Source: Candidatus Eiseniibacteriota bacterium | Lineage (GTDB): Bacteria > Orphanbacterota > Orphanbacteria > Orphanbacterales > Orphanbacteraceae | Direction: 5' to 3' | Assembly (NCBI GenBank): GCA_043809585.1 | Contig: JBDROZ010000091.1 | Coordinates: forward strand, 1 to 37,049 | DNA length: 37,049 nucleotides | Shown: one piece after another, positions 6,011-27,552 of the stretch | How the letters are laid out: each line of letters begins with the position of its first letter | Numbering within the stretch: position 1 is the stretch's first letter | The notes under the pieces: model-generated | What the model saw: only the letters and a program-made list of their open reading frames with translations | Databases searched by the model: none | Told to the model about the DNA's origin: nothing | Program-made: the position numbers and the translations under genes

Positions 6011-6245
6011 TTCCGGCCGGCCGGGAGGGCGACTAAGTCGATATGAATAATGGGGTTAGGCGGGAGGAGCGGCTGTCCGCGGTGGCGGGAGAAGTTTCTC
6101 GGAGGGGCGGCCGTCTTGGGTGACGGATGATGTTTCGTCCGGGTACAAAGGTGGTAATATGGGGCGAGAGCGTTTTGAGCCGAGATCTCATGGAAGATCA
6201 AGGCTAGACGATCGAACCTTGGGACACACACGACGGAGAGGCACG

Positions 6246-6410
6246 ATGCCGACCTATGAGTTCATCTGCCGCGCCTGCAAGAAGAAGTTCACGGTGGTGA
6301 AGCCCATCACGGAGTACGACCCGAAGAAGCTGGCTTGCCCGAAGTGCAAGAGCAGAATGGTCGATCGCCGTTGGAGCGGCGTGTTCGTCAAGACGTCCAA
6401 GAAGAGCTAG
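6246..6410 (+). CDS. FmdB-family zinc-ribbon protein
   Basis: MPTYEFICRAC...CPKC with two CxxC pairs. RBS GGAGAGG upstream of the ATG at 6246. Confidence 0.88.
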   Translation: MPTYEFICRACKKKFTVVKPITEYDPKKLACPKCKSRMVDRRWSGVFVKTSKKS

Positions 6411-6606
6411 CGGGGCCGCGGCTCGATCCGTCTCCCTAAAGACGGGTCAAGGACCGATCGGCCGGCCCGGCGCGGCACCTTCAGGGCCGCACGATATTTT
6501 CACGCGGGGCGGACGGTCATTGCGGCCCTCCCTTCATCAACCCAAAGCCAAGACCGTGAGAGAGAATGACAAGACGCGCATTTCCATCCACGAGTAGACG
6601 AATGCC

Positions 6607-8082: not shown

Positions 8083-9051
8083 TCACCCGACCGGTGGGCG
8101 GGGGGTGGGTTGTCCGCGTCGCTCGAGCCACTCCAGCATCTCCCGAAGGCTCCCCGTGGCCAGGGCGATGCTCGTATCGGCCGCGCCATAATACAAGTGG
8201 ATGGTGTCGCCATCGGGGGCGATCGTGTAGCCGCAAGGAAAGACGACGTTCCCTACATCCCCGACCCTTTCGTAGGGCTCTTCCGGGCCGAAGATCCACT
8301 CGTCGCCCCGCGCCAGGCAATGCTCGGGTTCGTCCAAGTCAAAAAGAGCGAGTCCGAGCCGGTAGAGACAGCCACCGGCGGTCATCCTCACGCCGTGGTA
8401 AACCACGAGCCAACCTCGCGAAGTTTCGATGGGCGGCGGAGAGAGGCCGATCTTGTTCGCATCCCACCATCCCCCGCGCCGGGCTTCCAGCATCAGCTTG
8501 TGGCTGCCCCAGTGCCGCAGGTCGGCCGAATAGGACATCCACATGTGCGCGCTGGGGGCGCTGACCGGCCGATGGATCAAGGCCCAATTGCCGCCGATGC
8601 GGTGAGGAAGAAGGGCGGCGTCTTTGTCTTCCGGCGGCATGATCACGCCATAGCGCTCGAAGTGCTCGAAATCTTCCGTGAAAGCCAGGGCCACGCCGGG
8701 GCCGTCACGGGTGAAGGCGGTATAGACGACAGCATACTTTTCCAATTCCGGGATGTAGGTGATGCGCGGATCTTCAATGCCTCCCGATTCTTCCGGGAAG
8801 TGTTCGGGATCCGCCGACAGTGTCGGCTGAGGGTCGATGCGCCAGCGGTCCACACCGTTGGCCGAACGGGCCGCGCAGAAATGGGAATGGCCACGCCGAT
8901 CTTCCACGCGGCACAACAGAAGGATCGTCCCGTCGTGCAGCACCGCGGCCCCCGGGTTGAACACACTATTGACCGGATAGGGCCAATCGGCGGCGGTCAG
9001 AATGGGATTCAGCTTATGCCGGAGAAAAAGCGCGGTACGTTCATCGCTCAT
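8083..9051 (-). CDS. GH130-like glycosidase/phosphorylase (beta-propeller)
   Basis: NPIL, VFNPGA, GIEDPRIT, EDKDAAL, LIHRP, GNVVFPCG, YYGAADT. The ATG at 9051 overlaps the upstream stop (ATGA). Confidence 0.9.
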   Translation of the reverse strand: MSDERTALFLRHKLNPILTAADWPYPVNSVFNPGAAVLHDGTILLLCRVEDRRGHSHFCAARSANGVDRWRIDPQPTLSADPEHFPEESGGIEDPRITYIPELEKYAVVYTAFTRDGPGVALAFTEDFEHFERYGVIMPPEDKDAALLPHRIGGNWALIHRPVSAPSAHMWMSYSADLRHWGSHKLMLEARRGGWWDANKIGLSPPPIETSRGWLVVYHGVRMTAGGCLYRLGLALFDLDEPEHCLARGDEWIFGPEEPYERVGDVGNVVFPCGYTIAPDGDTIHLYYGAADTSIALATGSLREMLEWLERRGQPTPRPPVG

Positions 9052-11333
9052 TTCGAGGGCGCCTCCTCGGACAAATGTGCGTTCTCGGCCAGGCGCAGTT
9101 CCAGCAGAGCCTGAAGAAATGCGAGCATGGACTCCGCGCCCTGATTCTCGTTCGGGCGATCGGGATGCAGGCCGTCCCGGCAACCCCCCGTAGTCGGGTC
9201 GTAGATGGGCAGGTTCAGGTCGTTCCGCCCAAGGAACCAATCAAAGGCGCGCCCGGCTTCCTTGCGCCAACTCGGGTCGCCTGTGATCCGGAAGGCTTCG
9301 AGGCAGGCGGAGACCATCGCCTGCGCCTCCACCGGCTGTTGATCGAACCGCGCCCTTTCGCCGTCGCGCTCATAGAAACCCTCTGAGCCGATCGGGACAA
9401 AATGCCCCTCGTCCGCGCTCTGCAAGTTCGCCAGCCAACCGAGCGACTCGAGCCCGGCCTCCGTCATGGCGGCATTCGGCGTCCATCGGCCGCTCAGGAG
9501 CAGGGCATGGGGCAACGTGGCGTTGCAGTAAGTCAGGGCGTTCTCGTACCATCGCCATTCGTCCGAACGATGCTTCCGGTACAACTCGAGCAGCCGCCCC
9601 GCCAACTCCTCCCGGACCTGGCTCGCCATGCGGTCGCCGGCGAAACGCCGCAGGTACTCGTGGATGCCGAGGAGTGCGAATGCCCAAGCGCGCGGGCTGG
9701 TCGTCTCCAGAATGGCCGGCAAAGCCTTTTCGAACAGGCGGCCGACCATGCCGCTGCGGATGGCGGGCGTGTTCGAGCGGCCCACCACGGTTCCCAGCGC
9801 CCACAGTGTGCGACCGTGACAATCGTCGGAGCCGGTCTCTTCCATCCAACGGCGCTGGTAATCCAAGAAATTGCGGACCCGTCCGGTCTCGCCATGGAAG
9901 GCATACCATACGAAGGCGAGATACCGGGAAGTCAGATCGAACGCCTTCCCGCTTCCCAGTTCCTCCAAGAGAGTGCTCACCATCAAGGCCCGAGCATTGT
10001 CGTCGGTGGTGTATCCCTCGCGGTAATTCGGCACGGTGAAGACGGCGTGCTGCAAGATGCCGGTTTCGTCCGTCATGTGACGCAAGTGATCGAGCTTCAG
10101 GGGCGGAAGTTCACGGGGGCGCTTGTCGAGCGGCTTGACCGCGAAGCCCGGGAGAGTGAAATGCCTGCGCTCGGCGCGGGCGCGCTCGAAGCATTCCATA
10201 TAACGCCGAGCGACACGGGGCCATATCATCTCCCGTCCGAACAGGTAGGCCCGCTTCCGCATGGCATGTCGTTTCGAATCGTCGCCCAACAGGTCAATCA
10301 CCTGCTCGCTCAACGCCGCGGCATCGCCGAACGGCACCAACGCCCCCCGCTCGTCCGCCAGCATCTCTTCCGCGTACCAGTAGGGCGTGGAAATCACGGC
10401 CTTTCCGGCCCCCAGGGTGTAGGCCAGCGTGCCGGACGTGATCTGGGCTTCGTTGAGATAGGGCGTGATGTAGAGGTCCGCTGCGCCGATAAACTGCAGG
10501 AGTTCCTCCTGGCTCACGAAGCGGTTATAGAAGATCACGTGACTCTCAACGCCCTTCTTCTGGGCCAACCATTCCAGGGACAGGCGATACGTTTCCCCGT
10601 CCTGTTGAATCACGTGCGGATGGGTCGCTCCGAGAATGATGTACACCACGTTCGGATATCGAGCCGCGATCGCGGGCAGGGCTTCGATGACGGTTTCGAT
10701 CCCTTTGTTCGGGGAAAGCAATCCGAAGCTGAGCAAGACGATCTTGCCTTCGACACCGAACAGGTCTTTGTGAAAACTCGGATCGACGAAGGGCACGTCG
10801 GGGATGCCGTGTGGGATCATGTCGATCTTTTCGGGATCTACTCGGTATATCTCCCGAAGAAACTCAGCCCCCCGCTCGCTCATGACCACTATCCGATTGG
10901 AGAGGGTCGCGATCTCCTCCAGCACCCGCCGCTGATCGGTGTTGGGGGCGCGCAAGACGGTATGCAGGGTCGTGACGACGGGCATGCGCAATTCGCGCAG
11001 TAGAACCAGGATGTGGCTGCCGGTCGGTCCGCCGAAGATGCCGTACTCGTGCTGCAGGCTCACGATGTCGACGTTGTTGATGTTGAGGAAATCGGCGGCG
11101 CGACGATAGGAGTCGATGTCCTTCTCCGTCAGCTCGAAGCGGACGCGGCTCGGATAAGCGTATCCGGCTTCATTGTCATTGACGGGCAGGGCGATGCACG
11201 TTGTGTGGGCGTTTTCGGTGGCGATGGCCTCGCATAGGCTCGTCGTGAACGTGGCGATGCCGCACTGGCGCGGCAGGTAGTTGCCGATGAACGCGATGCG
11301 GTTGATCGTCGAATCCGGCGCGCCCTGCTCCAT
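9048..11333 (-). CDS. Glycosyltransferase family 4 with C-terminal helical glycosidase-like domain
   Basis: YLPRQCGIATFT, QHEYGIFG, GLLSPNKGIE, SGTLAY, ISTPY (GT4). C-terminal GYTTDDNARAL, FDQQP, GCRDGL, NQGAES. Start placed at ATG 11333 with RBS GAGAGGAG. Confidence 0.9.
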   Translation of the reverse strand: MEQGAPDSTINRIAFIGNYLPRQCGIATFTTSLCEAIATENAHTTCIALPVNDNEAGYAYPSRVRFELTEKDIDSYRRAADFLNINNVDIVSLQHEYGIFGGPTGSHILVLLRELRMPVVTTLHTVLRAPNTDQRRVLEEIATLSNRIVVMSERGAEFLREIYRVDPEKIDMIPHGIPDVPFVDPSFHKDLFGVEGKIVLLSFGLLSPNKGIETVIEALPAIAARYPNVVYIILGATHPHVIQQDGETYRLSLEWLAQKKGVESHVIFYNRFVSQEELLQFIGAADLYITPYLNEAQITSGTLAYTLGAGKAVISTPYWYAEEMLADERGALVPFGDAAALSEQVIDLLGDDSKRHAMRKRAYLFGREMIWPRVARRYMECFERARAERRHFTLPGFAVKPLDKRPRELPPLKLDHLRHMTDETGILQHAVFTVPNYREGYTTDDNARALMVSTLLEELGSGKAFDLTSRYLAFVWYAFHGETGRVRNFLDYQRRWMEETGSDDCHGRTLWALGTVVGRSNTPAIRSGMVGRLFEKALPAILETTSPRAWAFALLGIHEYLRRFAGDRMASQVREELAGRLLELYRKHRSDEWRWYENALTYCNATLPHALLLSGRWTPNAAMTEAGLESLGWLANLQSADEGHFVPIGSEGFYERDGERARFDQQPVEAQAMVSACLEAFRITGDPSWRKEAGRAFDWFLGRNDLNLPIYDPTTGGCRDGLHPDRPNENQGAESMLAFLQALLELRLAENAHLSEEAPSK

Positions 11334-11737
11334 GCACACTTCTCCTCTCGCCGCCCCCCCCCCCCGAGGAGTTCGTCCGCCCCGACCCGGGCGACGATTC
11401 GAGGGTGGAGTCTCAGCCTCATGCCATGATACCACTTGTCCCTCGTAGAAAGGCGTCCTCCTTGCGGCGATCGAGGGATGTCGCCGCCGCTCCCCATGAT
11501 CGCGGGCGTGTTGGCCTGCTTGACGTTACCGGCTTCCACGTTCCCGGGAGACCGCCGGCAGGGGAGCCTGCTCGTGGACTTCATGCCCCCCCCGGCCAGG
11601 CCCTCCCTCTTGAACCGGACGCGAATCCCGGCGTTCCCTGGCCCCGGAGAGTCCGAAGCGGACGATTTCTTCGGTAGGGGCGCCGCGGCGAGACGAGGCC
11701 GACGGAGACGATATTGCTCGGGCTCCGATCTTTTCTC

Positions 11738-11765
11738 TTGACTTTCAACGGATTCGGACGATACT
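11738..11765 (+). promoter_or_regulatory. Putative sigma70 promoter for the RRM gene
   Basis: TTGACT-16 nt-GATACT in an AT-richer intergenic stretch. Confidence 0.45.
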
Positions 11766-11980
11766 TAGAACATAGCAGAGGATTTCTCCTGCCGAATCGA
11801 CTCGCCGCTAACGCCCCCGTTGATTCGAAACTTGGTACCGGAGTAACGATTCGAAGCTATGCCGGATCCCGGGTTATTGCGCGGAGAGCGCAGGTCCCGG
11901 GCCGGACCGAGAAGCCGCCGGCATGTCGCCGGATCGGCTCATCTTTCAGATTGCGGGGCGGAACGGAATTGGAGTCGAGA

Positions 11981-12247
11981 ATGAAGATGTACGTTGGAAA
12001 CCTCCCTTTCAGTGCCACAGAGACCGAGTTGCGCGACATGTTCGGGCGGCACGGAAGCGTCGAGTCGGTCAGCCTGATCACCGACCGTGACACGGGCCGG
12101 CCCCGCGGGTTCGGCTTCGTGGAGATGAATGACGGCGCTGAGGCCGCGATGAGCGCCCTCAACGGCACCGAGATGGGTGGTCGCAACCTGACGGTCAGCG
12201 AAGCCAAGAAGCGCGAGGACAACGGCGGCGGACGCAGCCGCTGGTAG
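11981..12247 (+). CDS. RRM (RNP-1) RNA-binding protein
   Basis: RNP2 MYVGNL, RNP1 RGFGFVEM, Gly-rich tail. RBS GGAG before the ATG at 11981. Confidence 0.95.
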   Translation: MKMYVGNLPFSATETELRDMFGRHGSVESVSLITDRDTGRPRGFGFVEMNDGAEAAMSALNGTEMGGRNLTVSEAKKREDNGGGRSRW

Positions 12248-12284
12248 ATCATCGACTCGCCTGAAGGCTTGATCGATAATCGCA

Positions 12285-12317
12285 AAATGCCCGGGGGCCG
12301 GTGGTTCCCGGGCATTT
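12285..12317 (+). terminator. Intrinsic terminator-like hairpin
   Basis: Perfect 11-bp inverted repeat AAATGCCCGGG...CCCGGGCATTT about 40 nt after the RRM stop. Confidence 0.65.
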
Positions 12318-12819
12318 CTCCGTTATCCCTCCCGAGAATCCCGTCCGAGTCGGCCCGCTTGATCTTACGGCGATTGTAAAGCACTCCTAGCCTTGATCTT
12401 GCAGAATCTGCGGTTCTGAATTCGGTGGGCGGGAGCCAGGGGATCAGGGCTGGCTTGTTCAAACAGTCCTCGCGCGCCGGCCCAGGCATCGAGGCGTCCC
12501 GCCACAGCGAGAGGGGCCTCCGAAACGAAAGTGTAAAGGTGGCCCTCCAGGTAGCCGCTTTTGGCAAACGAGTTCTGTTAATCGACGAGATCTTCGCGTC
12601 TCGTGGGGTAAAGCATCGACTGCTCTGGGATCCGCTTGGAGTGATCACGCTCGCCGCAAAGATCGATGAAATCTTGAATGGGCCCCTACCGAGTGCAGAG
12701 GAATTGGAGGAATTGGAGGTGCTAATCCCGGACAAGAGCTCCACACCGGGAGTGCACTCATTCCATCATTAGAATCGGGCATCCAAGGGGCTCCTTAGAT
12801 CGGAGTCCGGGCCGGCGGT

Positions 12820-15800
12820 CTATCCACCTCCTTCTCCTTCGCCTCCTCTCAAAAACACCAACGGCAGCCTCAGAAGCATTGCCGCGAGTAACCTCGTTCG
12901 AATTCCGAGTAACCCGAGGAGAAGACGGCGACCGCTGTGAATCACACAGGCGTCGGCGAGGCGTTCCTTCGTGATCGACCGGCAATTCATCTTTAGGCAC
13001 GGGATCTCGTCGAAGTCCTCGTAGTGTCTCTTGAAGACGGCGTTCATGATCCCGTAGGCACCGAATGGCTCGAAGGTCTTCAGAAACGCGTCAACGCTCA
13101 TGTCTCCGAAGCGACCGGTGATGACGATCCAGAGGAGCTGAAAGCCCCTCGCACCGGCGAGGGAGTCGTCGGGAGGAATGCGGGCCAGGTAGTGCGAGAC
13201 GATGACCACGTCGTCCAGCTTGTCTCGAAAACCGGTGGGCAGACACTTCAACTCGTTGTTCGGCGAGTTGTTGGCTGTCTTACCCTGGTCGCGAATGTTG
13301 GCGGCGGCGGGGCTGTTCTCTATGACGTCCCGGATAGTAAGGACGCTGCCGGCGATCGTTCCGTTTCGAAGGAATTCGAGGGTTCGGACGACACCGTATG
13401 GCACCTGGACCCAGTTGACGGCGTTGTATCCTTCCAAATACTCGTTCGATCCTGACAACTTGTTTTCGATGAAACGGGTCTTCGACCCCCAGAAATCGGA
13501 AGACACGACGACCGACCAGTTGGCGGATCCCTCCACGAAGAGCTTTCCCTGAAAGGGAATGTTCTGGGGATGAAAGAGGGGGGACAGGCCCCGCAAGAAC
13601 CGGAGGGGACGGAACGAGTGAACTCCCCATGGGCCGTCCATGTCCCAATCGCGATAGTGTCGGAGCCGGGGGCCGAGGTTTCCCTCCCCCTGGAAGTTAT
13701 GGAAGTACTCGTGGATGACGATATCCTGCGTTTTCGCCTCGGAGAATCCGGGCACGATGAGGATCATCTTCTTTCCGTGCCTGCAAAGCCCCGCCCAGCC
13801 CCCTCCCGTGTTCCTAACGTCGTCCTCGGTCGCCAGCCGGAATCGGTAGGGGCGCCGAACGAGGGAACGCTGCTTGTCCGCCATCACCCGCAGACACTTC
13901 TCCTTCATCTGTCGCAGTTTCCCGTTGGATGAAACGGACCTCTTCTCGCCGAGCAATGCGGCCTGGACGTGGGCTTCCTGATCATCACCGAGGACGTCGC
14001 TCAGAAAACCGAGAGTAGCCCATTTGTTCAGCAGGGGGTCGCCCGGACCGTTACCGTGGCCGGGGTCGGAACAGCTCCAATCGTGAAGGCATCCACAACA
14101 ACCCGAGTCTTCATCACAGGGGCAGTCGGCGAGTATGCGCCAAGCCCGGCGGAAGGCGGATAGAATCGCTCCCTCCGTGTCGAGGTCGGCGATCGCCTGG
14201 GCGCTTCGAAGAAGGTCGTCGTAGATGTAAATGGAGCTTTCGGTCGCGACGAACTGGAGGCGCGAGTGAAGACTCCCCTGTTCGACGCTCAGCGCGCTTC
14301 GAAGGAGATGGGCCACGCCATGGACCACCGAAGCGCCATGGCCCGAATCCCCCCGGGCCAGGGAAATTCGGAGGGCCGGGGCTTCGAATTCCCGCCGGGG
14401 AGGGGATGGCCCCGCCCACATCTCCGACTCCCCCTCCGTGTCGAGGTCGAGACCTTGGTAGGTGCGCCGGCCGATCACCTCCTCGGTGACCTTGACCTTC
14501 CACCTTCCGAACGAATACCCATCGGTCTTGACCGCTCTGCCGATCTCTTCGACTTCCTCGATGGCGATGCGCGATATGCGTTTCGACATTTGCGCACGGG
14601 GCTCCGCCTGCACGAGAATATCGTCACCCGCATTTGACCATCGGTTTACCCGGTGCCGGCGGCCGTGCATCACGAAGACCGCACCCTCGAAGTAGAGCGC
14701 CGGGGCGTTCACCGCATCGACCCACGCGAGGATCCTGTCCGCCGCGCCACCGATGTCCCGGATCGCCATGACTCGATCGGTAATGACCTCGAGTGTGGCC
14801 AGAGCCTCCTGCACCCGGGAATCGGGTGCCCCATCCGAATCTTCGGATGCCGCCCGCTCTCTTTCGGCTTTCTCGACGGCGGCGAGGAAATCGGACGAGA
14901 GTAAGTTCCTCGCCAGATCCTCATCGACCGGTCCCTCTAGTTCTCCGAGGAAGGTCTCGGCATGATATCGGAGCGCCTCTTCCGATCGAACCGGCAGGTT
15001 GTAGAGCGTTCTCGGCAGGGGGCGTACCTCTCTGTGCATATCGTCCGCAACATCGATCAACTCGTCCGGCCGGTTCATGTAGTACTGGTAGAGCGGGGTG
15101 CGTGGGGCGAGGAGGAGAATGTCCAGGTGTCCCGCAGCAGCCAAATGGCGCGTCTCGGTTTCCAGAAAAGCTCCTGCGTTCTGATATCCCGCGAGGAGAA
15201 GCGTCCGGAGGTCCCCGATATCCTTCCCCTTCTTCAACAGCGCGGAGCGGAGCGATGGAAGATCGGACCCGAGGAAGAGAATCTCGTCGAGATCGGGGAC
15301 GGGAGGCGATTCACCCTTTTCGATCCTCAGTCGAACGTCGTCGAGAATCTGGTTGATCTCGGCGTCTGTTGCGCGGATTTCGCCGCTGATGATCCCCGTC
15401 GTCCGCCCCGTCGCAATCGAGGTGGAGGCCAGATTGACGAGTTCCTGCCAGTACCGGCGCCGGACGACGCGGAGCGTCATCGAGGGACCCGAGTCGCCGG
15501 AGACAGACTCGATGTCGACGTTCATGGCGCTCGGAGCCCAGACACTGAGGCTCCTCGTCGAGGTCCCGGCCCGGTCCACCAAGTCCTCGACCCGGCCGGG
15601 AATTCCGAGCTGGCCCGCGAACTCGGCGGGGTTCGTCATGCCCGGTAGCACCGTGATCCAGGGGGGTGAGAAACCCTTCGAGGCCAGGAAATAACGATAA
15701 CGGCCGATGACGTACCGGGCGTGACTGGCCATCGGACCCTCGAGGGATTCGAGATCTTCGGCGATCACGGCTTCCTGAAAGACGGCGAGTTCGGCGACGT

Positions 15801-16377
15801 CCTTTCCGTACTCCCGGAGAAGCCGGTGGAGGGTCGGAAGATCCGTGAATATGGCGGTGCCCGGCAAGAGAGAGCTTCCGAGCCGCTCCTCGAGATCACG
15901 TGTTCGAAGCTGGGTGAGGCCGACAAGCCAGGAAAGATGGGCGCGGTCGAGAGCGCCCTTCCAAAGCTCCTTCTGCCTACCGGCGAGGTCGTCCGTCGGG
16001 CAGAGAACCAGGACCGACCGACCCCTCTCGAAGAGACGGGGAAGGAGCCAGAGAGCGATCGCCGTCGTCCGGCCGCTCCCGAAGGGGAGGGCGACGGTCG
16101 TCGAGCGGTCCTCGCTGTCCGTGCCCGGGCGCGCCAGGCGGTCAAGAATGGCCTGCTGGTGTTTGTACACCTTCTCGATGCGGAGGGCCGTGGCGACCAG
16201 CGATTCGGCCCCTCCCCCGGGGGGGTGGTACTCGACCGACTCTCCCGGGGCGCCGCGAAGGCGCGGAACTTCGCGGCAGAGCGATCCCTGATACTCTTTC
16301 CAGAGAAGACCCTCGTTCAGCAGGCTGCGAGGATCCTGCCTGGATCGACTACGTCCCATGATCGATTTCGCGCTCAT
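12820..16377 (-). CDS. Degenerate MrfA/DUF1998-type SF2 helicase fused to an HExxH zinc metallopeptidase domain
   Basis: Q-motif VYKHQ, degenerate Walker A (PFGSGRTT) and Walker B (IAEDLE), PLYQYYMNRP, DUF1998 Cys cluster CPC..GCCGCL..C, then IHEYFH...FVEG. The start may be ATG 16359 instead. Confidence 0.78.
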   Translation of the reverse strand: MSAKSIMGRSRSRQDPRSLLNEGLLWKEYQGSLCREVPRLRGAPGESVEYHPPGGGAESLVATALRIEKVYKHQQAILDRLARPGTDSEDRSTTVALPFGSGRTTAIALWLLPRLFERGRSVLVLCPTDDLAGRQKELWKGALDRAHLSWLVGLTQLRTRDLEERLGSSLLPGTAIFTDLPTLHRLLREYGKDVAELAVFQEAVIAEDLESLEGPMASHARYVIGRYRYFLASKGFSPPWITVLPGMTNPAEFAGQLGIPGRVEDLVDRAGTSTRSLSVWAPSAMNVDIESVSGDSGPSMTLRVVRRRYWQELVNLASTSIATGRTTGIISGEIRATDAEINQILDDVRLRIEKGESPPVPDLDEILFLGSDLPSLRSALLKKGKDIGDLRTLLLAGYQNAGAFLETETRHLAAAGHLDILLLAPRTPLYQYYMNRPDELIDVADDMHREVRPLPRTLYNLPVRSEEALRYHAETFLGELEGPVDEDLARNLLSSDFLAAVEKAERERAASEDSDGAPDSRVQEALATLEVITDRVMAIRDIGGAADRILAWVDAVNAPALYFEGAVFVMHGRRHRVNRWSNAGDDILVQAEPRAQMSKRISRIAIEEVEEIGRAVKTDGYSFGRWKVKVTEEVIGRRTYQGLDLDTEGESEMWAGPSPPRREFEAPALRISLARGDSGHGASVVHGVAHLLRSALSVEQGSLHSRLQFVATESSIYIYDDLLRSAQAIADLDTEGAILSAFRRAWRILADCPCDEDSGCCGCLHDWSCSDPGHGNGPGDPLLNKWATLGFLSDVLGDDQEAHVQAALLGEKRSVSSNGKLRQMKEKCLRVMADKQRSLVRRPYRFRLATEDDVRNTGGGWAGLCRHGKKMILIVPGFSEAKTQDIVIHEYFHNFQGEGNLGPRLRHYRDWDMDGPWGVHSFRPLRFLRGLSPLFHPQNIPFQGKLFVEGSANWSVVVSSDFWGSKTRFIENKLSGSNEYLEGYNAVNWVQVPYGVVRTLEFLRNGTIAGSVLTIRDVIENSPAAANIRDQGKTANNSPNNELKCLPTGFRDKLDDVVIVSHYLARIPPDDSLAGARGFQLLWIVITGRFGDMSVDAFLKTFEPFGAYGIMNAVFKRHYEDFDEIPCLKMNCRSITKERLADACVIHSGRRLLLGLLGIRTRLLAAMLLRLPLVFLRGGEGEGGG

Positions 16378-18505
16378 AGAAGTTCAATACTCCGAACCGT
16401 CCTCTCCCGCGGACCGGGAGGAGGGCGATTTCGCCTCTGTCCGACAAGCGCTTCGAAAGCTCCTCCGCCCACCCGGCGTAGCCGTCGGGGAAGAAGAGAA
16501 TCCCTCGTGATTGCCCCGCCTTGTGGTAGTACGGAACGGGGCGATTGGACCTCAGTTCCCTCTCGATGCGATCAAAGACCGACTCGACCATTCCCGCGGT
16601 TTGGAGGGCGCCCGCATCTCCCAAGTACCTCTTCTCGACGAAGTGCTCGCTGACCCGATCCCGAACCCACACGAGAAAGCCGTCGGGGTCTTCTACGAAA
16701 TCGGGCAGGTTCTCTTTCGCGAGCCTCGCCGATACGGAAGTCGCGATCTCTTCGACCCGGTGATCCTCGGGCTCGAGCTCGAGGAGCCGGATCGCCTTTC
16801 GAACGACCTCGTCCGAGTAGGCCTTCGCCAGTTCTCTGATTCTCTCGTGATCCACGACCGAGATGGCTTCCGTCTTCTCCGCGAAGCTCCGGAGGTAGGT
16901 GAGAAACGCGCCGAGCCGCCCACGGAATCGACCGACCCGCGCCGCGGCCCTTTCGACGGTCTCCTCGATGAACGAGAGCCGCTGCTGGTGCTCATTCGCG
17001 AGAAAGAACCGGCGAATTCCATCGGATCGATCCGAGAAGTCCCGCCGAAGTTTCAATTTGCTCCGGTGAAAGAAGAACGCGCAAACAACCGTATAGAGCA
17101 GGGCGCCCAGCAGAGTGAATACGATGAGGCGGGGGAAGAGGGAATAGTCACGAATCAGCGGGATCTTCTGTTGGTAATGGCGGAGAAGAAGCATCGCGAT
17201 GATCGCGAGAGCGGGCCAGACGTAAGCGAGCCACCGGGGCCTGAGAAATCGATCCGCACGGATCTCGCGAACCTGCTCCCATTCCGTCCAACCGACCCGA
17301 TGACGAAGCTTGCCTGTCAGGGTCGCCCTCGCCTTCGCGATCCAATCGCGGCAGTGCGTGGAAAGGCGTCCTGCTCCTCCCTCTACGACGAGTATCCCCA
17401 ACACGTTGTGAAGATCTTTCGGCCAGAGACGCCCCGAGTTCCCGGCCCCCCTCACCCGATCGATCGTGGAGCCCAAGAATCGGGCTGTCCAGCCCGGAAC
17501 GCCTCGGAGGCCCTCCCGGTGGCGCTCCGAGACATCGGCGCCCGCCTGCATCATTCTGGACGCGTAGTCTCGGAGGCCGTTCCGGAGCTTTCGTTCCACA
17601 TCTTCGTAGTCCGCCTTCTTGCTCGATTGGGTCGAGAAGAAGCGGAGGTCATCGGTCGACACGTTCGGGTGGTCGGGAAGGGTCGGCCCACGCTCCCGTA
17701 TCAATTCGCCCGAGATCTGCTCGAGGGCCTTTTCGGCGAGGGCGTTCGCCAACTCGACATCCGATCCTTCCTTCATGGTCTCGGCCGTGGCAAGGAGGGC
17801 GAGAGCCCGCGGATAGTTGGCGTCTACCGCCGCGAGCCGGAATGCCTCGAGAAGATCCCGGCCGGGATCGAAAACGGCCGCACCCGGTATGATCCTTCGT
17901 CCGAGACTCGCGCCTTGGAGGAGGGGTTCCAGGGTTTGTTCATGGGGAGAAGCCGAGTTCACGAGGAGGTCGATAATCGTGAGGGCCGTGTCGCGAACAC
18001 GGGCCGGCGCCACCGGATGGCCGCCGGCGGGGTTTCTCTCTTCCACGAGAATCGGGACGAAGGGAAAGTCGCGGCGAAGTTCACAGGCGGCTTTCTCGTC
18101 TTCCTCGGCGAGTTCCGGGGCGATCAGGATCACCGCCCCCTCGCACGACAGTCCGAGAGCCCGGGCGCCGGCGCAGGCCTCCCGCAGCGAAGCCCAGAGG
18201 GCGTCCCTGGATCCGTCGCTCCCATCGAATACGAAGAGAAAACGGATCACGAAGTGCTCGAGGCCGGCGCTTCCCCCGATGAACGTATCGCCCCCGGCCT
18301 CCGCGATCGTCTCCACTCGAGCGCGGAGAAGGTCCCAGCTTTCGCGTAAAGAGCTCTCGTCGTATCCTCGGGCCAAGACGACGAACGGGGGGTCGTGCGC
18401 CTCTGATGCCTCCCGATAGGCGTCGTCCACGAGCGAACGGCCGGTCTCCGGATCCGGGACCGCCCTCACCGGCACGATGATGGTCGGACGAACCTCCCAG
18501 GGCAT
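16349..18505 (-). CDS. Membrane protein (2 TM, helical/coiled-coil regions), possibly with an inactivated tubulin-like N-terminus
   Basis: 718-aa ORF tightly coupled to both neighbours. Two hydrophobic helices (WLAYVWPALAIIAMLLL; LIVFTLLGALLYTVVCAFFF). Confidence 0.75.
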   Translation of the reverse strand: MPWEVRPTIIVPVRAVPDPETGRSLVDDAYREASEAHDPPFVVLARGYDESSLRESWDLLRARVETIAEAGGDTFIGGSAGLEHFVIRFLFVFDGSDGSRDALWASLREACAGARALGLSCEGAVILIAPELAEEDEKAACELRRDFPFVPILVEERNPAGGHPVAPARVRDTALTIIDLLVNSASPHEQTLEPLLQGASLGRRIIPGAAVFDPGRDLLEAFRLAAVDANYPRALALLATAETMKEGSDVELANALAEKALEQISGELIRERGPTLPDHPNVSTDDLRFFSTQSSKKADYEDVERKLRNGLRDYASRMMQAGADVSERHREGLRGVPGWTARFLGSTIDRVRGAGNSGRLWPKDLHNVLGILVVEGGAGRLSTHCRDWIAKARATLTGKLRHRVGWTEWEQVREIRADRFLRPRWLAYVWPALAIIAMLLLRHYQQKIPLIRDYSLFPRLIVFTLLGALLYTVVCAFFFHRSKLKLRRDFSDRSDGIRRFFLANEHQQRLSFIEETVERAAARVGRFRGRLGAFLTYLRSFAEKTEAISVVDHERIRELAKAYSDEVVRKAIRLLELEPEDHRVEEIATSVSARLAKENLPDFVEDPDGFLVWVRDRVSEHFVEKRYLGDAGALQTAGMVESVFDRIERELRSNRPVPYYHKAGQSRGILFFPDGYAGWAEELSKRLSDRGEIALLPVRGRGRFGVLNFYEREIDHGT

Positions 18506-18514
18506 TCTCGTCCC

Positions 18515-21418
18515 CTAGAATTCGAATACCGCGGTGGAATAGGCTTCCTGTTCGATCGCCCATTCGACGGTCTTCACGTCCCGGGCGTAAACTTCCTTCA
18601 GGCTCTTCGCCGTCTTCGGGTTGTCTCTTTTCTCCTCGAGCGCCTTCTTGAGGGCGGTGAAGATCTTCTTTCTTTCCTCGGGCGGCTGCTTTCTCCAGAC
18701 CCGGGTCGTATCATCCGACACGGCGGCCCGGGTCTCCGTCGGCTCGGAAACGAACCAGTCGATCACGTTTTCCCGTCCCCGAAGACCGGTCTCGAGGTTG
18801 TTTTGCCGGTACTTGTAAACGGCGCCCGCGATCCGAATGACCTCGAAGTGTTCGGCCAATAGGAAGACGAGCCGCGCGAAGCTCCGGCGGTCCTCGGAAA
18901 CCTCTTTTTCGGTGATACTCTTGTCGAGGAAGATCTCCCGACCCTTTTCCTGGGCCCAGACGGCGCTGTCCCTCCAAGTCCGGTTCGCGACGAGATCGTC
19001 GGGCACGAAGCCCGCGAGAACGGCGAAGAAGGAGACCTCGTAGGGATTCCCCGGCATGCGGGGATCGTTCGAATCGATCTTGAGCTCGTTCCCCATCCTC
19101 TCTCCGCCGGCGCCCGCGGACATGTATTCCGACAGCGAGGGAGCGTCCTTGCCGGATTTGCCACTGAGGACCTTTTCGTAGAACTCATTCCAGGCGTTCT
19201 CGTTGTAGAGCATGTAGCTGTGAGTTTCCGACCGGGCCGTATCCCGTAGAGAGGCGAAGGGGGCCGCGATGCGCGACGTTTTGGCCAGGAGATCGGTACA
19301 GTAGCTCTCGACGTCTCTTCCGGCCTCCGAGGCTTCTCGATCTATCGCCTGCCACACCGTCATGTCGACGGAGGACTGGAAACTGCCCTGCAGGGAACGA
19401 AGCATCTCGGCGCGGAGAGAGAATCCCCAATTCAGACGAAGCTTCGGGGTGAGATCCCCTCCCGTCTCGATGAAATCGAGGAGCCTCTCGACGACGAACC
19501 GTCCCAAAACCGTCCGAATTCGACCGCGGGCGACCTCCATCTGAGCCGCGAACTCGGGCTCGGAGGCCAGCTTCTTGTAAGCCGTCTCGGCGACCCCCTC
19601 CTGTCCCAGAACTTCGACGACTACTTCCGTCTTGACGTAGATATCGTTGTCCTCGAAGTCGGGGAAGGCCGAGTTCTGCAGACAATCACGAAGAGCCTGA
19701 ATGGCGAGCAGGAACGTATTCTGGAGGCGGGCATCGAGGTTCTCGACGTGTGCGATGTCCGCCGTCAGAGTCGCTTCTCTCCAGTGCGCGCCCAGGAGGG
19801 TACCGACGGACTTCTCGAGGTCTTCCTTCGAGGAGGCGCGCCGCACGCGATGAAGGAAGGACTCGTAGGTCTTCCTAAAGCCCTCGAGATCCTGGGCCAT
19901 CCGGCGCTCCGCGCTTTTCGATCGCTCCTGCTCTTTGTTCCTCTTCTTCGTGAGGTCTTGAGCCGCCGCCTGCAAATGCCCGGAGAGGGAGCGAAGCATG
20001 GCGTCGAGGGCGCCCCACGGAAGGGGCCGGTCGCCCGAAATCCGGGAGAGAAGACCCTCGCGAAGTTCTTTCCAGTCCGATTCGAGCTCCGGGTCCGTGT
20101 TGGCACTGATGTGTTCGTTGACCTGAGACTTGAAACGCTCCCACTCGGTGAGGACCTGCTCGCTGACCTGATGATAATTATCCGAATCGGCTCCCTCGAT
20201 CGCCGATCCGAGCTTGGAGGCCAGCTTGGCGGGAAGCTCGAGCGTCCTTACCGCTCCGAAACGGCGGATCGGCTTGCGGTAGTCCTGCGACAAGAGGGTC
20301 TCACGGAGGGAGTTCCAGACCTCGGACCCGACACCGTGACCCAGCTCGACGACATCCTTGTTCGTGAGTCCGTCCGAATCCCGGAGGTAGTCTTCGATGA
20401 CCAATCTCGCCAGCCGGTCTTGGTGCCTGAGAATCGGATATCGGAGAATCGATTTGCCTCCCGCCCCGAGGGGGTCCACGTTCGGCTTCTCCGCGAGTCC
20501 CATCGCGATGTTGATGAGGATCGGCTGCTCGCTGCTGAACTCGAGATCGAACAGGAAGTCCGCCGCGAGCTGCTCGTATTCGGTGAAATGATCGAGGAAC
20601 TGGCCGTGGGCGGAGCTGCCGTCCACGAGATAGAGAAGATCGAACGGCTTCGGTGGATCGGCCACGGCCTCCAGGGGCCTCGGATCGTCGAGGAAGAACC
20701 GGTAGCTGTACTTCGTTTCTCCGCACAGCACTTTTCGCGTCCAGAACGAGTTCTCCCAGAGGAAGGCGTACGTGTTCGCCTCGAAATAGCGATGGGCCCC
20801 CTTGGTCTTGCCGACCTGTGTTCCGGGGAGAAGGGCGATTCCGACGATACGGATGTCCCGAATGCCTTCCCTGTCGAAGAGCCAGCGGACGTAATGGGCG
20901 AGCGGGATCATGATCCCGGCGCCGGTTCCGCCGCACAGAGAGGCCGCGAGAAAGACCGTCGGCGTAGAGCCGGCCTCCGCCTGGACCCGTTCGACGGCCA
21001 TCGCGCTCTGGTGTGCGGAGAGGAGCACGTCTCGAATGAGCGAATCGAGGGGGTCGTAGGATCGGCGGTTCAGGTGATAGATGAGCCCGAGCTTCCCCTG
21101 GGGGCGGCGCTGTCCGAGTCCCGCGGTTCCGACATAGGTGGCGCACTTGTGCAGCGGTATGGGCCACCAGCTCGTGTCGAAGTCCTTCTCCTGCAATTCG
21201 CGAACATAGTCCGCGGGAGAGAACTTTCCCGTCCAGCAGTACTGGGAGCGCGACTTCATCTGGTCGTGCCAGATCTCGCCGTCGAATCCGAAAACCTTGT
21301 AGATGTACTGGGCTTCTTCGGAGTCCTTTCCGTAGAAGTCGACGATTTTGTCGTGGAGCTTGTTCGCCACACCGATGCCGGTGCCGCCGACGCCTATGAA
21401 GTACTTGGGTTGAGGCAT
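18515..21418 (-). CDS. FtsZ/tubulin-like GTPase (Tubulin_2 / FtsZl type) with long helical C-terminus
   Basis: FIGVGGTG, GLGQRR.G, tubulin signature SLCGGTGAG, EANTYA, PFDLLYLVD, coiled-coil middle region. RBS AAGGGGAG. Confidence 0.9.
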   Translation of the reverse strand: MPQPKYFIGVGGTGIGVANKLHDKIVDFYGKDSEEAQYIYKVFGFDGEIWHDQMKSRSQYCWTGKFSPADYVRELQEKDFDTSWWPIPLHKCATYVGTAGLGQRRPQGKLGLIYHLNRRSYDPLDSLIRDVLLSAHQSAMAVERVQAEAGSTPTVFLAASLCGGTGAGIMIPLAHYVRWLFDREGIRDIRIVGIALLPGTQVGKTKGAHRYFEANTYAFLWENSFWTRKVLCGETKYSYRFFLDDPRPLEAVADPPKPFDLLYLVDGSSAHGQFLDHFTEYEQLAADFLFDLEFSSEQPILINIAMGLAEKPNVDPLGAGGKSILRYPILRHQDRLARLVIEDYLRDSDGLTNKDVVELGHGVGSEVWNSLRETLLSQDYRKPIRRFGAVRTLELPAKLASKLGSAIEGADSDNYHQVSEQVLTEWERFKSQVNEHISANTDPELESDWKELREGLLSRISGDRPLPWGALDAMLRSLSGHLQAAAQDLTKKRNKEQERSKSAERRMAQDLEGFRKTYESFLHRVRRASSKEDLEKSVGTLLGAHWREATLTADIAHVENLDARLQNTFLLAIQALRDCLQNSAFPDFEDNDIYVKTEVVVEVLGQEGVAETAYKKLASEPEFAAQMEVARGRIRTVLGRFVVERLLDFIETGGDLTPKLRLNWGFSLRAEMLRSLQGSFQSSVDMTVWQAIDREASEAGRDVESYCTDLLAKTSRIAAPFASLRDTARSETHSYMLYNENAWNEFYEKVLSGKSGKDAPSLSEYMSAGAGGERMGNELKIDSNDPRMPGNPYEVSFFAVLAGFVPDDLVANRTWRDSAVWAQEKGREIFLDKSITEKEVSEDRRSFARLVFLLAEHFEVIRIAGAVYKYRQNNLETGLRGRENVIDWFVSEPTETRAAVSDDTTRVWRKQPPEERKKIFTALKKALEEKRDNPKTAKSLKEVYARDVKTVEWAIEQEAYSTAVFEF

Positions 21419-21452
21419 GATACTCCCCTTTCCGGCCGTGCCGTCGAAGCTC

Positions 21453-22874
21453 CTATCCGGAGGAATACTCCGCGCGATACTCTTCGTATTCGATGTCGGC
21501 GTAGCTGCCGAGTCGCACCTTTGGGCCGGTGAGCTCCTCGCCGTCCACCTTCAGGCCTTTTCGTTTCCTGTGCAGGATGACGTCGCCCGACCAGGTCGCG
21601 GTGAGGACGGCGACCACGCCGCCCGTTTCGCCGAAAGGAACGCCTTTCCGCGGTCCCAGCGAGATGCGGTGGCCGCAGAGTCGCGCCCGATTCTTCAGCC
21701 GGTAGTCGATCTCCCCCGTGGATATGGTCTGCTTGCGGAACTTCGGAAGAGCGAGGCAGGCCAAGAGCACGAGAATCAGGAGCAACAGGAGGGCCTGAAG
21801 CCAGCGGGGGAGGTCGAGGATCCACGACTTGACCCGCTGCCAGAGGGGGGGCTTCGATACCTTGATCTTCACCGGTACGTGGACGACCACGCGTTCATCG
21901 CACTCGAGCCCGGAGGTCTTCGGTGTGATGCGGACCTGGAGCTCGATGGTCTCCGATCTTGTCCCGATGGGGAAATCCAGGCTCAGATCTTTCTTCTGGC
22001 CCTGTTTGGTGAACCGCATTTCGGTCGGTGAAAGGGAAACGCCCGAGCCGCCGTCAAGGGCGATGTCTTTCGGCTCTCCGGGGGGAAGAGCGTGCGCCGC
22101 CTTCAGGGTGATTTCAGCTCGCTGTCGGCATTTCTCGGCGGGAATCCTCCCGTCCGGGTTCGCCTTCACCTCGATCTCGTCGAGGTAGTAATTCACATCT
22201 TCGAATCGGAGGATGGATCGCGTGATCTGTTCGGAAGCGGCGGGGGCTTCGACGACCTCGATCTCCTCCGGGATCTCCGAGGCGTCCAGCTCGGATCCGG
22301 GCAGTTGGACCAGATACACTCCCACGCCGTCGTTCCGGACGATACCGCCGGCGAACTCGTCTCGCATGACCGACTTCCAGTCGTTCGGCTCGGCGGCATC
22401 CGGGGGAGGATCGTGCTTTCCGTCCGTGAAGATGTAGACTTCGCTTCCGCCGAGGTCGTCCCCGGCCACCTCCCGGATCCACCGGGCGGCGTGGTAGACC
22501 GCACCGGTCAGGTTGGTATACTGGCCGTTCGGAGGATCCTGGCGGAGTGCCTGGATCGTCTGCCGAATGCGATCTTGCCCCCGAACGTCGAACTCATCCC
22601 TCTTTACCGTCTCGTGATCGAATGTGAAGACCGCGCAACGGATCCCGTCGTCGAGGTGCGCGGCATAGCGATTCTCGAGATCCGTGAGCAACCTCTCGTA
22701 CATATTGCCGCGAAGCATGCTCTTCGACGTGTCAATGACATAGGCGACCCGCTTCGGTTCGTCGTAGACCTTGTGGGTGGCCGGGGACCGCTCGGTTGAA
22801 TCTTCACAACCGGAATGGGCAAACAGGATGGAGAGCAGGGCGAGAAGGGAAGGGAGGTGACGTGGGAGCTTCAA
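21453..22874 (-). CDS. Membrane-anchored von Willebrand factor A domain protein
   Basis: MIDAS DxSxS (VIDTSKSM), YTNL, FTDGK. N-terminal lipoprotein-like signal (..LFAHSGC), C-terminal TM, short FHA-like tail. TTG at 22874 lies 8 nt after GGAGG; the start is uncertain. Confidence 0.85.
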   Translation of the reverse strand: MKLPRHLPSLLALLSILFAHSGCEDSTERSPATHKVYDEPKRVAYVIDTSKSMLRGNMYERLLTDLENRYAAHLDDGIRCAVFTFDHETVKRDEFDVRGQDRIRQTIQALRQDPPNGQYTNLTGAVYHAARWIREVAGDDLGGSEVYIFTDGKHDPPPDAAEPNDWKSVMRDEFAGGIVRNDGVGVYLVQLPGSELDASEIPEEIEVVEAPAASEQITRSILRFEDVNYYLDEIEVKANPDGRIPAEKCRQRAEITLKAAHALPPGEPKDIALDGGSGVSLSPTEMRFTKQGQKKDLSLDFPIGTRSETIELQVRITPKTSGLECDERVVVHVPVKIKVSKPPLWQRVKSWILDLPRWLQALLLLLILVLLACLALPKFRKQTISTGEIDYRLKNRARLCGHRISLGPRKGVPFGETGGVVAVLTATWSGDVILHRKRKGLKVDGEELTGPKVRLGSYADIEYEEYRAEYSSG

Positions 22875-23036
22875 AGTGCACGCCTCCATTGGTATTGAAC
22901 TCCTGGCGCTCCGATATCGCAGCGGCACTTCCGTGGGCCCGCAGAGGATGCGGCCCGGCCCTCCGGCCACGCCAACCAACACATTGAAAATTAATGAGTT
23001 GGGAGAGCGCCGGACCGAAGATACCCTTGTATGGAT

Positions 23037-25112: not shown

Positions 25113-25151
25113 GTCTATTTCCCCGTCGGCAGTTTCATGCAGAGGGTCGAC

Positions 25152-26641: not shown

Positions 26642-26650
26642 CCTCCCCTC

Positions 26651-27535: not shown

Positions 27536-27552
27536 GAAAGATCCTCCATTCT

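Follow-up and report, generated by a model that had tools for sequence, protein, structure and literature searches.

A conserved MrfA/YprA-derived pseudo-helicase with a likely gluzincin-type domain, encoded at the end of an FtsZl1-vWA operon in Candidatus Eiseniibacteriota

The subject of this analysis is a 1185-residue protein encoded at 12820..16377 on the minus strand of a 37,049-nucleotide stretch of DNA from a Candidatus Eiseniibacteriota bacterium (assembly GCA_043809585.1, contig JBDROZ010000091.1, positions 1 to 37,049). We refer to this whole stretch as the window and to the protein as the target. The target combines a helicase-derived body with altered motifs (a pseudo-helicase), an MZB domain, a gluzincin-like domain and a cysteine-bearing helical tail, and its reading frame is open across all 1185 codons. 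Its gene is the last of four on the minus strand, in the order vWA, Tubulin_2/FtsZl1, X and target; the first two junctions are gaps of 34 and 9 nt, and X then overlaps the start of the target gene by 29 nt. The vWA-domain protein (21453..22982 (-), 509 aa; Pfam VWA_2, expectation value (E) 4.5e-7) has a signal-like N-terminal segment, DTSKS at the position of the metal-ion-dependent adhesion site, one C-terminal hydrophobic segment (residues 387-405) and a tail of ~100 aa, and its predicted topology is membrane-anchored. The FtsZl1-type tubulin-like protein (18515..21418 (-), 967 aa; Pfam Tubulin_2, E 5.4e-29) keeps in its sequence both glycine-rich loops, GVGGTGIG and GGTGAG, which we take to be the tubulin T1 and T4 loops, and gave one weak PADLOC match, to typeIV_Cas11 (E 0.0089, 14.2 bits). 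Its C-terminus, ...EQEAYSTAVFEF, is acidic and aromatic, and the tails of three related FtsZl1 proteins differ from it. Gene X (16349..18505 (-), 718 aa) encodes a protein with central hydrophobic segments at residues 423-441 and 455-473; it had no Pfam, NCBIfam or PADLOC match, and a word-indexed search returned no homologue.

The target begins with a RecA1/RecA2-like core with altered motifs (15028..16197 (-), residues ~61-450), followed by a region that matches the accessory domains of MrfA (14338..15027 (-), residues ~451-680), for which we use the names WH, OB and CON given in the MrfA structure paper (PMC7797055). Within this region, residues 536-673 are beta-rich in the model of the target. 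An MZB/DUF1998 zinc-binding domain (14068..14337 (-), residues ~681-770), a gluzincin-like, putatively catalytic domain (13363..14067 (-), residues ~771-1005) and a C-terminal helical domain (12823..13362 (-), residues ~1006-1185) complete the chain. The full-length AlphaFold2 (AF2) model, computed with alignment A2 (below), has a mean predicted local distance difference test score (pLDDT) of 84.3 and a predicted template-modelling score (pTM) of 0.88, values that indicate a confident, compact arrangement of the domains. Pfam recognizes the helicase-derived part only weakly. It places DEAD at residues 73-165 (E 1e-4, under the gathering cutoff) and MZB at residues 686-764 (E 1.4e-4, 22.9 bits versus a cutoff of 24.2) and returned nothing past residue 770, and the NCBIfam MrfA-type model TIGR03817 matches residues 64-637 (E 2.4e-11). 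In PADLOC the target, X and the vWA protein had no match at E<=0.01, and the proteins could not be placed in DISARM, Druantia or Dpd.

The closest solved relative of the target by sequence is Bacillus subtilis MrfA/YprA (6znp; phmmer with the target alone, E 2.5e-6), and a profile of the target's family extends this match to E 3.4e-107, with profile positions 25-720 aligned to chain positions 26-731. Searching the PDB with the full-length model using Foldseek returned the four MrfA entries as the best matches (E 4.5e-31 for 6znp_A to 3.9e-20; template-modelling (TM) score normalised to the target (TMt) 0.59-0.70, with 6zns at 0.70), and other superfamily 2 (SF2) helicases ranked after them at E ~1e-7. 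The SF2 RecA1-RecA2 core and the accessory domains are homologous to those of MrfA. Judged by its motifs, the target is a member of the MrfA/YprA family by descent, not as an active helicase. The Q-motif equivalent, V-Y-K-H-Q (16156..16170 (-), residues 70-74), is kept and aligns to LYTHQ of MrfA. In the P-loop, PFGSGRTT (16063..16086 (-), residues 98-105), an arginine replaces the Walker A lysine, R103 being aligned on the MrfA lysine in the 6znp alignment. The motif II equivalent, VIAEDLE (15748..15768 (-), residues 204-210; AEDLE is 206-210), has E-D-L-E in place of D-E-x-H, with E207-D208-L209-E210 aligned on D-E-L-H of MrfA. At motif III, LPG (15640..15648 (-), residues 244-246) replaces SAT. 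At the position of motif VI (15136..15159 (-), residues 407-414) both arginines are lost and His411 replaces the first; TRHLAAAG (residues 409-416) aligns on the GRAGRR region of MrfA with H411 and A414 on the two arginines, and the target has no QxxGRxGR. Motifs I (GK[ST]), II, III and VI, which an active helicase needs, thus all appear in the target in altered form.

To place the target among related proteins we used searches of increasing depth. A word-indexed search found only two proteins, the full-length relative P0002 (34% identity) and one of MrfA-like type. An exhaustive HMMER search of a library of 1.84 billion protein cluster representatives, with a cutoff of E<=1e-3, returned 125 proteins. 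Screening these for motifs gave ~80 with a C-terminal HE[YF]xH and neither DExH nor GRxGR, and 28 canonical MrfA-like helicases with DExH and GRxGR and no HExxH. Full-length members of the first group were aligned as A2 (58 sequences, 16-35% identical to the target), and a second alignment, A1, includes shorter sequences (78 in all). For comparison we used the 22 of the 28 canonical proteins that are 700-900 aa long. A tree built with FastTree from the helicase and MZB columns only parted the 58 fused from the 22 canonical proteins by one branch with a Shimodaira-Hasegawa-like support of 100. FastTree is a quick method, and the tree contains several long branches and few canonical sequences; it is consistent with, rather than proof of, a single origin of the fused clade.

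The clade varies in its additions. An N-terminal extension of >180 residues precedes the P-loop in 19 of the 58 members, and in 11 the RecA2 region is longer by 160-200 residues. When five of these 11 were scanned with Pfam, the insert held a vWA domain in P0038, P0045 and P0058 (residues ~318-450) and no vWA domain in P0027 and P0084. P0021 and the family member of locus L006 (5894-10582 of that locus) carry a transglutaminase-like domain. Accessory modules have evidently been swapped within the clade, judging by these sequences, and the vWA fusions tie the family functionally to vWA proteins.

To identify which helicase elements the clade has lost and which it has kept, we compared the 58 family members with the 22 canonical proteins at the 104 columns in which the latter reach 85% conservation or more. 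The Q motif, the serine and glycine of the P-loop, a basic residue at the Walker lysine position, a PxxPxxQ stretch after motif VI and the four MZB cysteines are kept. In the Q motif, position 71 is aromatic in most members (Y31, F9, W2 of 58), and H73 and Q74 are each present in 42. The P-loop has S101 in 35 and G102 in 49 members, with arginine in 31, lysine in 14 and other residues in 13 at position 103. Several canonical residues have been exchanged for conserved substitutes: motif II has become [ED][DN]x[DE] (207 is E26/D13, 208 is D28/N11, 210 is D22/E19/H7), SAT has become S/T-x-P (P246 in 38), and the first arginine of motif VI has become histidine (H411 and G413 in 41 members each). 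GRxGR occurs in none of the 58, a count that follows from their selection, P0051 with one GRLGR having been left out. Lost across the family are motif Ia (TKAL..DQ), the threonine, glutamate and glycine of motif V and the second arginine of motif VI, and the tyrosine, arginine and glutamate of motif IVa fall in gaps in 44-48 of the 58.

The MrfA structure gives these columns a meaning. In MrfA, Y56 and Q59 hold the adenine base, K82 and R384 lie near the gamma-phosphate, and R298 and R333 of motifs IV and IVa touch DNA (PMC7797055). The pattern in the family reads as a base and phosphate pocket that has been preserved while the elements for hydrolysis and for tracking along nucleic acid have gone. 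In addition, the helicase and MZB part is net acidic in all 58 members (median -2.6 per 100 aa), compared with a median of -1.0 per 100 aa and a positive charge in 5 of 22 in the canonical set, net charge being a crude measure. Given the pattern of motif loss and the acidic body, we favour a switch that binds a nucleotide or is purely structural, and not a nucleic-acid sensor. That the retained pocket binds a nucleotide without turning it over is a tentative proposal drawn from the conserved residues.

A different use of the same body would be a dead helicase that still clamps DNA or RNA, with binding turning the protease on. The target has kept every domain of MrfA, the ring-forming accessory ones and MZB among them, in a confident model, and MrfA encircles single-stranded DNA with its accessory domains and MZB (PMC7797055); an RNA-guided type III CRISPR locus also adjoins the operon. 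However, motifs Ia, IVa and V, with which canonical helicases contact DNA, have been lost, gapped or replaced throughout the family, the acidic charge is shared by all 58 members, crude as that measure is, and the operon partners are membrane and cytoskeletal proteins, not nucleic-acid enzymes. We therefore regard a clamp as unlikely.

An earlier reading of this DNA, made from the sequence alone, had proposed that the helicase fold has become a nucleic-acid or ligand sensor gating a protease. Every motif it listed (GSGRTT, AEDLE, LPG, the absence of motif VI, the Cys cluster, HEYFH, VEG and the Cys tail) is present as described, with HEYFH, PFGSGRTT and the Cys cluster confirmed by directly translating their stretches of the window, and its identification of an MrfA/DUF1998 helicase with replaced hydrolysis motifs is borne out by the 6znp matches of both the model and the family profile. 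Its sensor proposal divides. The nucleic-acid part is probably wrong, given the loss of motifs Ia, IVa and V and the acidic bodies of all 58 members. The ligand part is the better fit, as the family has held on to the Q motif and the P-loop; here we infer a function from conserved residues. The vWA-FtsZl1 operon and the CRISPR locus beside it did not figure in that reading.

Two predicted zinc sites follow the helicase core. The cysteine cluster CPCDEDSGCCGCLHDWSC (14071-14124 (-), residues 752-769, from direct translation) lies at the end of the MZB domain, and its CPC...GC..C (residues 752-763) is shared by most of the family: C752 is found in 56, C754 in 55, C760 in 51 and C763 in 57 of 58 members. 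By this sequence signature the domain is an MZB domain with a four-cysteine zinc motif. The second site would be formed by HEYFH (13699-13713 (-), residues 889-893), E949-G950 (13528-13533 (-); VEG is residues 948-950) and Y980-x-x-G983 (13429-13440 (-)) of the gluzincin-like domain. H889, E890, H893, E949, G950 and G983 are invariant in the 58-sequence alignment, although the HExxH residues were the selection criterion of that alignment and their invariance is partly by construction. Conservation that owes nothing to selection is found at E949, G950 and G983 (58/58), Y980 (57), A952 and G995 (56 each), E991 (54) and W954 (51). A rough estimate puts the chance of one HExxH in a protein of this length at a few per cent, which is not rare, and the significance of the motif therefore comes from its conservation in the family and not from its presence alone. 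Searching the left-out sequences with a C-terminal-domain profile added three carriers, P0051 (HEYAH), P0074 and P0081, and HExxH is intact in 79 of the 81 representatives that cover the site, as the sequence-only reading had required of homologues if its protease was to stand.

A separate AF2 model of residues 770-1185, computed with alignment A1, has a pLDDT of 84.9 and a pTM of 0.85. It runs from three short strands into the long HEYFH helix, a helix that starts just before E949 and a helical bundle; in the models H889, E890, H893 and E949 lie on helices 880-900 and 946-963. An HExxH motif with a third-ligand glutamate on a downstream helix is the signature of a gluzincin, and the target has it in both sequence and model. 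The zincin-type domain proposed by the sequence-only reading is thus visible as a family-wide HExxH...E signature, with fold matches below significance. When the C-terminal model was searched against the PDB with Foldseek, 34 of the 44 matches listed were metallopeptidases or HExxH proteins, none at E<=1e-3; they include M1, M9 collagenases, M61, minigluzincins, IrrE/PprI, SPRTN, lethal factor, MATCAP and an HExxH oxygenase. The best local superposition was with abylysin (4jiu; probability 0.80, TMt 0.50, root-mean-square deviation 2.6 over 81 columns, non-significant E). We also considered a protease acting on tubulin tails, by analogy with MATCAP, the top Foldseek match. This match is not credible (E 0.45, probability 0.10, TM 0.11-0.13) and the four FtsZl1 C-termini are not conserved, and the analogy was dropped for these two reasons.

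The domain shares with the M1 and M9 gluzincins of clan MA(E) the HExxH motif, a following helix that carries the third-ligand glutamate in E-G-x-A, and a conserved downstream tyrosine. The E-G-x-A motif presumably resembles the NEGFA motif of M1. Family M1 is defined by the exopeptidase motif GxMEN and an HExxH-x18-E spacing. In the target's family, in contrast, the distance from HExxH to the glutamate is 24-55 residues (median 32), the target having the longest at 55; no GxMEN is visible in the target, the M1 N-terminal beta domain is absent, and the domain is fused to a pseudo-helicase. The Peptidase_M1 Pfam model reaches at best E 3e-4 (20.9 bits versus a cutoff of 27.7) in some members, and sub-threshold Pfam matches in members also include M61, BSP, DUF2268 and SprT-like (E 0.012-0.26). 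With sub-threshold scores, deviating spacing and no visible GxMEN, the sequences do not place the domain in M1. In a profile search against the PDB with the C-terminal part only, the rows beyond MZB were M1 aminopeptidases (E 0.09-1.6), with HEYxH(N/Q)W aligned on the M1 active-site helix, and ribosomal protein S12 at a different region of the profile. A look-up of the C-terminal domain in the ESM Atlas returned unnamed clusters only (scores 0.88-0.89, below the lead threshold). From sequence and model we consider this a gluzincin-type domain outside every curated family, with the fold assignment likely.

Two features of the C-terminal part differ between members. In the target, an insert (residues ~897-935) separates the HExxH helix from the glutamate helix, and its residues ~912-931 (13585..13644 (-)) have a pLDDT below 50; this lineage-specific insert could be an autoinhibitory or partner-binding loop. 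Residues ~1006-1185 are helical in both AF2 models, and Cys 1045, 1127, 1132 and 1144 are present in 27, 24, 27 and 19 of the 58 members, most of the others having gaps there, so that about half of the family, the target included, has a further helical four-Cys domain.

Related loci were collected with a 19-sequence alignment and the single pattern [ASI]HEYxHN[WF]Q, which recovered six (L001-L006), all on contigs of metagenome-assembled genomes (MAGs). L003 encodes a response regulator, a vWA protein (800 aa), a Tubulin_2 protein (1035 aa), an X-like protein (662 aa) and the target homologue (964 aa). L004 and L006 have Tubulin_2, an X-like gene and the target homologue, L001 has an X-like gene and the target homologue, and L002 and L005 are cut. 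Tubulin_2 is therefore present in all three related loci that show two upstream genes, and an open reading frame (ORF) of 660-830 aa abuts or overlaps the target gene in all four that show one. The X proteins all have one or two central hydrophobic segments. By gene content the operon in the window fits the definition of an FtsZl1-vWA operon given by Makarova and Koonin (2010; PMC2875224), and L003 has the same arrangement.

The surroundings of these loci vary. Defence or mobile-element genes lie near three: the window (CRISPR), L003 (SNF2 and methyltransferase) and L001 (integrase); L002 is set among housekeeping genes. In L003, genes for an SNF2-type helicase and for an MmeI/Eco57I-like methyltransferase that includes a target-recognition domain (15005-22345 (+)) lie ~2 kb downstream of the operon, which suggests a defence-island setting. 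In L001, a 202-aa FGE-sulfatase-domain protein directly follows the target gene and is itself followed by a phage-type integrase (5501-7228). Formylglycine-generating-enzyme-like domains are among the effectors of vWA conflict systems (Kaur et al., PMC7159879). An MlaD-domain gene adjoins the pseudo-helicase-zincin gene in two of the six related loci (L003, 12962-14115 (-); L005, 1462-2784 (+)), accompanied in L003 by a PqiA gene; this neighbourhood may be chance or may reflect a link to membrane lipid transport.

Together, these sequence comparisons and models make it very probable that the target represents a conserved clade of YprA/MrfA-derived pseudo-helicases that carry an apparently active gluzincin and are encoded as the terminal gene of vWA-FtsZl1 operons. 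As to how such a protein would work, we lean towards a nucleotide- or partner-dependent pseudo-helicase switch that controls the fused metalloprotease on an assembly of FtsZl1, vWA and X at the membrane. The target would be a cytoplasmic pseudo-helicase-protease, in which a MrfA/YprA SF2 helicase with its accessory and Cys4 zinc domains would have lost ATP hydrolysis and DNA translocation and kept an adenine-nucleotide-type pocket (the Q motif and a P-loop with arginine or lysine). To this would be joined an M1/M9-like gluzincin with H889, H893 and E949 as zinc ligands, E890 as general base and Y980 as the candidate transition-state tyrosine, whose protease activity is presumed from these residues. 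Its partners in the operon would be the membrane-anchored vWA protein, the tubulin-like GTPase FtsZl1 and the membrane-hairpin protein X. The rigid helicase-derived body would then serve both as the nucleotide- or partner-dependent switch and as a docking platform on the FtsZl1/vWA/X assembly, and would set the timing at which the metalloprotease cuts a component of the system or a target protein. Control of the protease by the helicase body, a system component as its substrate, and a function in conflict or defence, to which the neighbouring type III CRISPR locus may be connected, are tentative suggestions, each rather less likely than not.

Several observations weigh against this interpretation. 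The best Foldseek PDB match of the C-terminal domain has E 0.45 and a TM of about 0.24; the BFVD viral library gave at best E 0.06 (IrrE-like, SprT-like, M48), with none at E<=1e-3; the C-terminal profile reached E 0.09 against the PDB; and the best Pfam match in any member is DUF6782 (E 2.1e-5, 24.4 bits versus a cutoff of 27). No peptidase match is significant, so what carries the zincin assignment is the motif together with the topology and the preponderance of zincins among the weak matches. Two members have degenerate active sites, P0074 with HVYAH (catalytic glutamate lost) and P0081 with YQRFH (motif lost), and P0024 and P0090, which have the arginine-type P-loop, end <=100 aa past MZB without a zincin, although they may be fragments or split forms. 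With 13 of 58 members lacking a basic residue at the Walker lysine position, nucleotide binding cannot hold for all members. The five positional equivalents of X have no mutual similarity by blastp or phmmer and are thus positional or architectural analogues, not demonstrated homologues. Context comes from six related loci only, all from MAGs and several cut by contig ends, and their recovery with a single pattern makes the context statistics thin. Finally, cas genes lie near the window operon only: none was found among the scanned ORFs of L003 (10 kb on each side), CRISPR arrays were not found in L001-L006, and no related locus has cas genes in the DNA available for it.

The first of these points bear directly on whether the HExxH domain is a protease at all. 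It might instead be another zinc or iron enzyme, such as an HExxH oxygenase, or a non-catalytic binding module; every fold match is non-significant, the matches listed include the HExxH-domain oxygenase 8s5f (E 3.7), and two members are without an intact motif. Set against this are the gluzincin triad, the EGxA(x)W helix and the near-invariant tyrosine in 79 of 81 representatives, the order of sheet, HExxH helix and glutamate helix, and the fact that most of the weak matches are peptidases. On this evidence a function other than proteolysis is improbable.

The CRISPR neighbour raises a further explanation. A complete type III-B CRISPR-Cas locus occupies 23430-37031 on the minus strand, upstream of the operon. 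Its Cmr module (31889-25152 (-)) consists, from upstream to downstream, of RAMP, Cas10/Cmr2, Cmr3, RAMP and RAMP genes and is followed by a CorA-like putative effector (23430-25112 (-); PADLOC E 4.6e-57). Further upstream lie a Cas6-reverse transcriptase-Cas1 fusion (32962-35751 (-)) together with a Cas2 signal, and two CRISPR arrays with an ~36-nt repeat are found at 32525-32845 and 36282-37031. The vWA-FtsZl1-X-target operon follows 447 bp downstream, in the same orientation as the Cmr/Cas10 genes and the CorA-like gene. It could on this basis be an accessory effector of the type III-B system, in which a nucleotide made by Cas10 would occupy the adenine pocket and activate the protease, by analogy with proteases that cyclic oligoadenylate activates. 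The retained Q motif and P-loop would suit such a mechanism, and vWA/tubulin systems have been reported near CRISPR loci (PMC10910872). However, scans with Pfam, PADLOC and NCBIfam found no CARF or SAVED domain in any operon protein, a CorA-like effector is already part of the locus, a promoter-like site precedes the vWA gene, although it matches the consensus at only 9 of 12 positions, and the related loci, as noted above, are free of arrays and, in the scanned ORFs of L003, of cas genes. We judge an accessory-effector role distinctly improbable. The adjacency to the type III CRISPR and CorA-like genes, together with the independent vWA/tubulin report in PMC10910872, makes a link to CRISPR signalling worth testing.

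An extension of the switch interpretation would make the operon a self-contained, membrane-spanning immune module. An extracytoplasmic vWA sensor and GTP-driven polymerisation of the tubulin-like protein would set a threshold, and the helicase fossil, still binding an adenine nucleotide, would then act allosterically to release the metalloprotease effector; its ligand may come from the neighbouring type III CRISPR system as a nucleotide signal. We think this rather unlikely. If it were true, the target would give the YprA family its first protease-coupled member and FtsZl1 systems their first assigned catalytic output.

Because MrfA works in the repair of mitomycin C damage (PMC7797055), a protease for DNA-protein crosslink repair, following the logic of SprT/Wss1, might also have arisen on this scaffold, and weak SprT-like signals exist in Pfam, as given above, in Foldseek (6mdw, E 3.6) and in several BFVD rows. 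The DNA-contact motifs are lost, however, the partners are a vWA, a tubulin-like and a membrane protein and not repair nucleases, and the better weak matches are of the M1, M9 and M61 types, which leaves crosslink repair very improbable. That the gene is a decaying helicase with a fortuitous HExxH, to which the sub-cutoff DEAD and MZB Pfam scores could point, is scarcely credible given substitutes conserved (R/K103, [ED][DN]x[DE], H411-x-G413) over 58 sequences only 16-35% identical to the target, a confident full-length model, 1185 uninterrupted codons, a conserved operon, and a family that emerges from both the 125-hit search and the tree; homologues likewise lack DExH and GRxGR, and the fusion, which the sequence-only reading had allowed might be peculiar to one genome, occurs in roughly 80 clusters and 6 genomes.

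MrfA/YprA (DUF1998) helicases are central components of the DISARM, Druantia, Dpd and ARMADA defence systems, and to our knowledge all described members of the family are active motors paired with nucleases. The target shares with them the whole domain set of RecA1, RecA2, accessory domains and Cys4 MZB, as well as the Q motif and the P-loop glycines. It differs in having arginine for the Walker lysine, EDLE for DExH and LPG for SAT, in lacking the motif VI arginines, and in the loss of motifs Ia, IVa and V; its C-terminal fusion is a gluzincin and not a nuclease, and it is encoded with vWA and FtsZl1 proteins in place of MrfB or defence-system partners. The main text of a 2025 survey of the YprA family (bioRxiv 10.1101/2025.09.15.676423) contains none of the terms tubulin, vWA, peptidase or protease. 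If our interpretation holds, this clade would have given up its motor, kept its nucleotide pocket and gained a protease, a new reuse of the helicase scaffold.

We know of no biochemistry assigned to FtsZl1-vWA operons since their description in 2010, and a conserved, apparently active protease in one branch would give this poorly understood system a likely catalytic part. The window operon has the features of these operons and of the tubulin conflict systems, namely a Tubulin_2 gene beside a membrane-associated vWA gene and lineage-specific membrane proteins. In the 2010 work the bacterial partner families B1-B9 (Additional file 6, PMC2875224) are described only as membrane-associated or low-complexity, and the terms Helicase and DUF1998 appear nowhere in its text or supplements. 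Kaur et al. (2020; PMC7159879) describe tubulin and vWA neighbourhoods as NTP-dependent conflict systems around GAP1-type GTPases, with no DUF1998 term in the article, whereas Pfam detects no GAP1-type GTPase in the window operon; neither main text has a DUF1998 protein or a helicase-peptidase component. Near CRISPR loci, Altae-Tran et al. (2023; PMC10910872) describe systems related to vWA that include proteins with a tubulin domain, labelled 'vWA + Tubulin' and 'Tubulin + other protein + vWa' in Table S3, and no DUF1998 term occurs in the available supplements. Among open-access papers and preprints we found none that describes an architecture of DUF1998/MrfA pseudo-helicase plus zincin. The novelty thus lies in a new combination within two known kinds, the YprA family and the FtsZl1-vWA operons. 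Sensor-fused proteases are known in prokaryotic immunity from the SAVED/CARF-Lon proteins of type III CRISPR systems. The target resembles them in its presumed logic, a non-catalytic ligand module joined to a protease beside a type III CRISPR locus, but its putative sensor fold is an SF2 helicase, not CARF or SAVED, and its predicted protease class is gluzincin, not Lon or caspase-like.

The remainder of the window holds genes on both strands. Just downstream of the target gene, and convergent with it, is a gene for a small RRM_1-domain protein (11714-12247 (+), E 1.5e-20). The 295-aa ORF at 11857-12744 (-) is probably not coding and was set aside: its translation abounds in Ser, Arg and Pro, and the RRM_1 gene overlaps it on the other strand. 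At the start of the window, a CHASE2-adenylate/guanylate cyclase gene (156-2288 (+)) is followed by one for an MscS-type channel with a cyclic-nucleotide-binding domain (3204-4832 (+)), and the two may form a pair of cyclase and cyclic-nucleotide-gated channel. Beyond the RRM gene, 8083-11435 (-) encodes a 795-aa GT4 glycosyltransferase and a GH130 mannoside phosphorylase-like protein; the GT4 protein also gave a weak match (E 0.0049) to the 'GT4-conflict' Pfam model.

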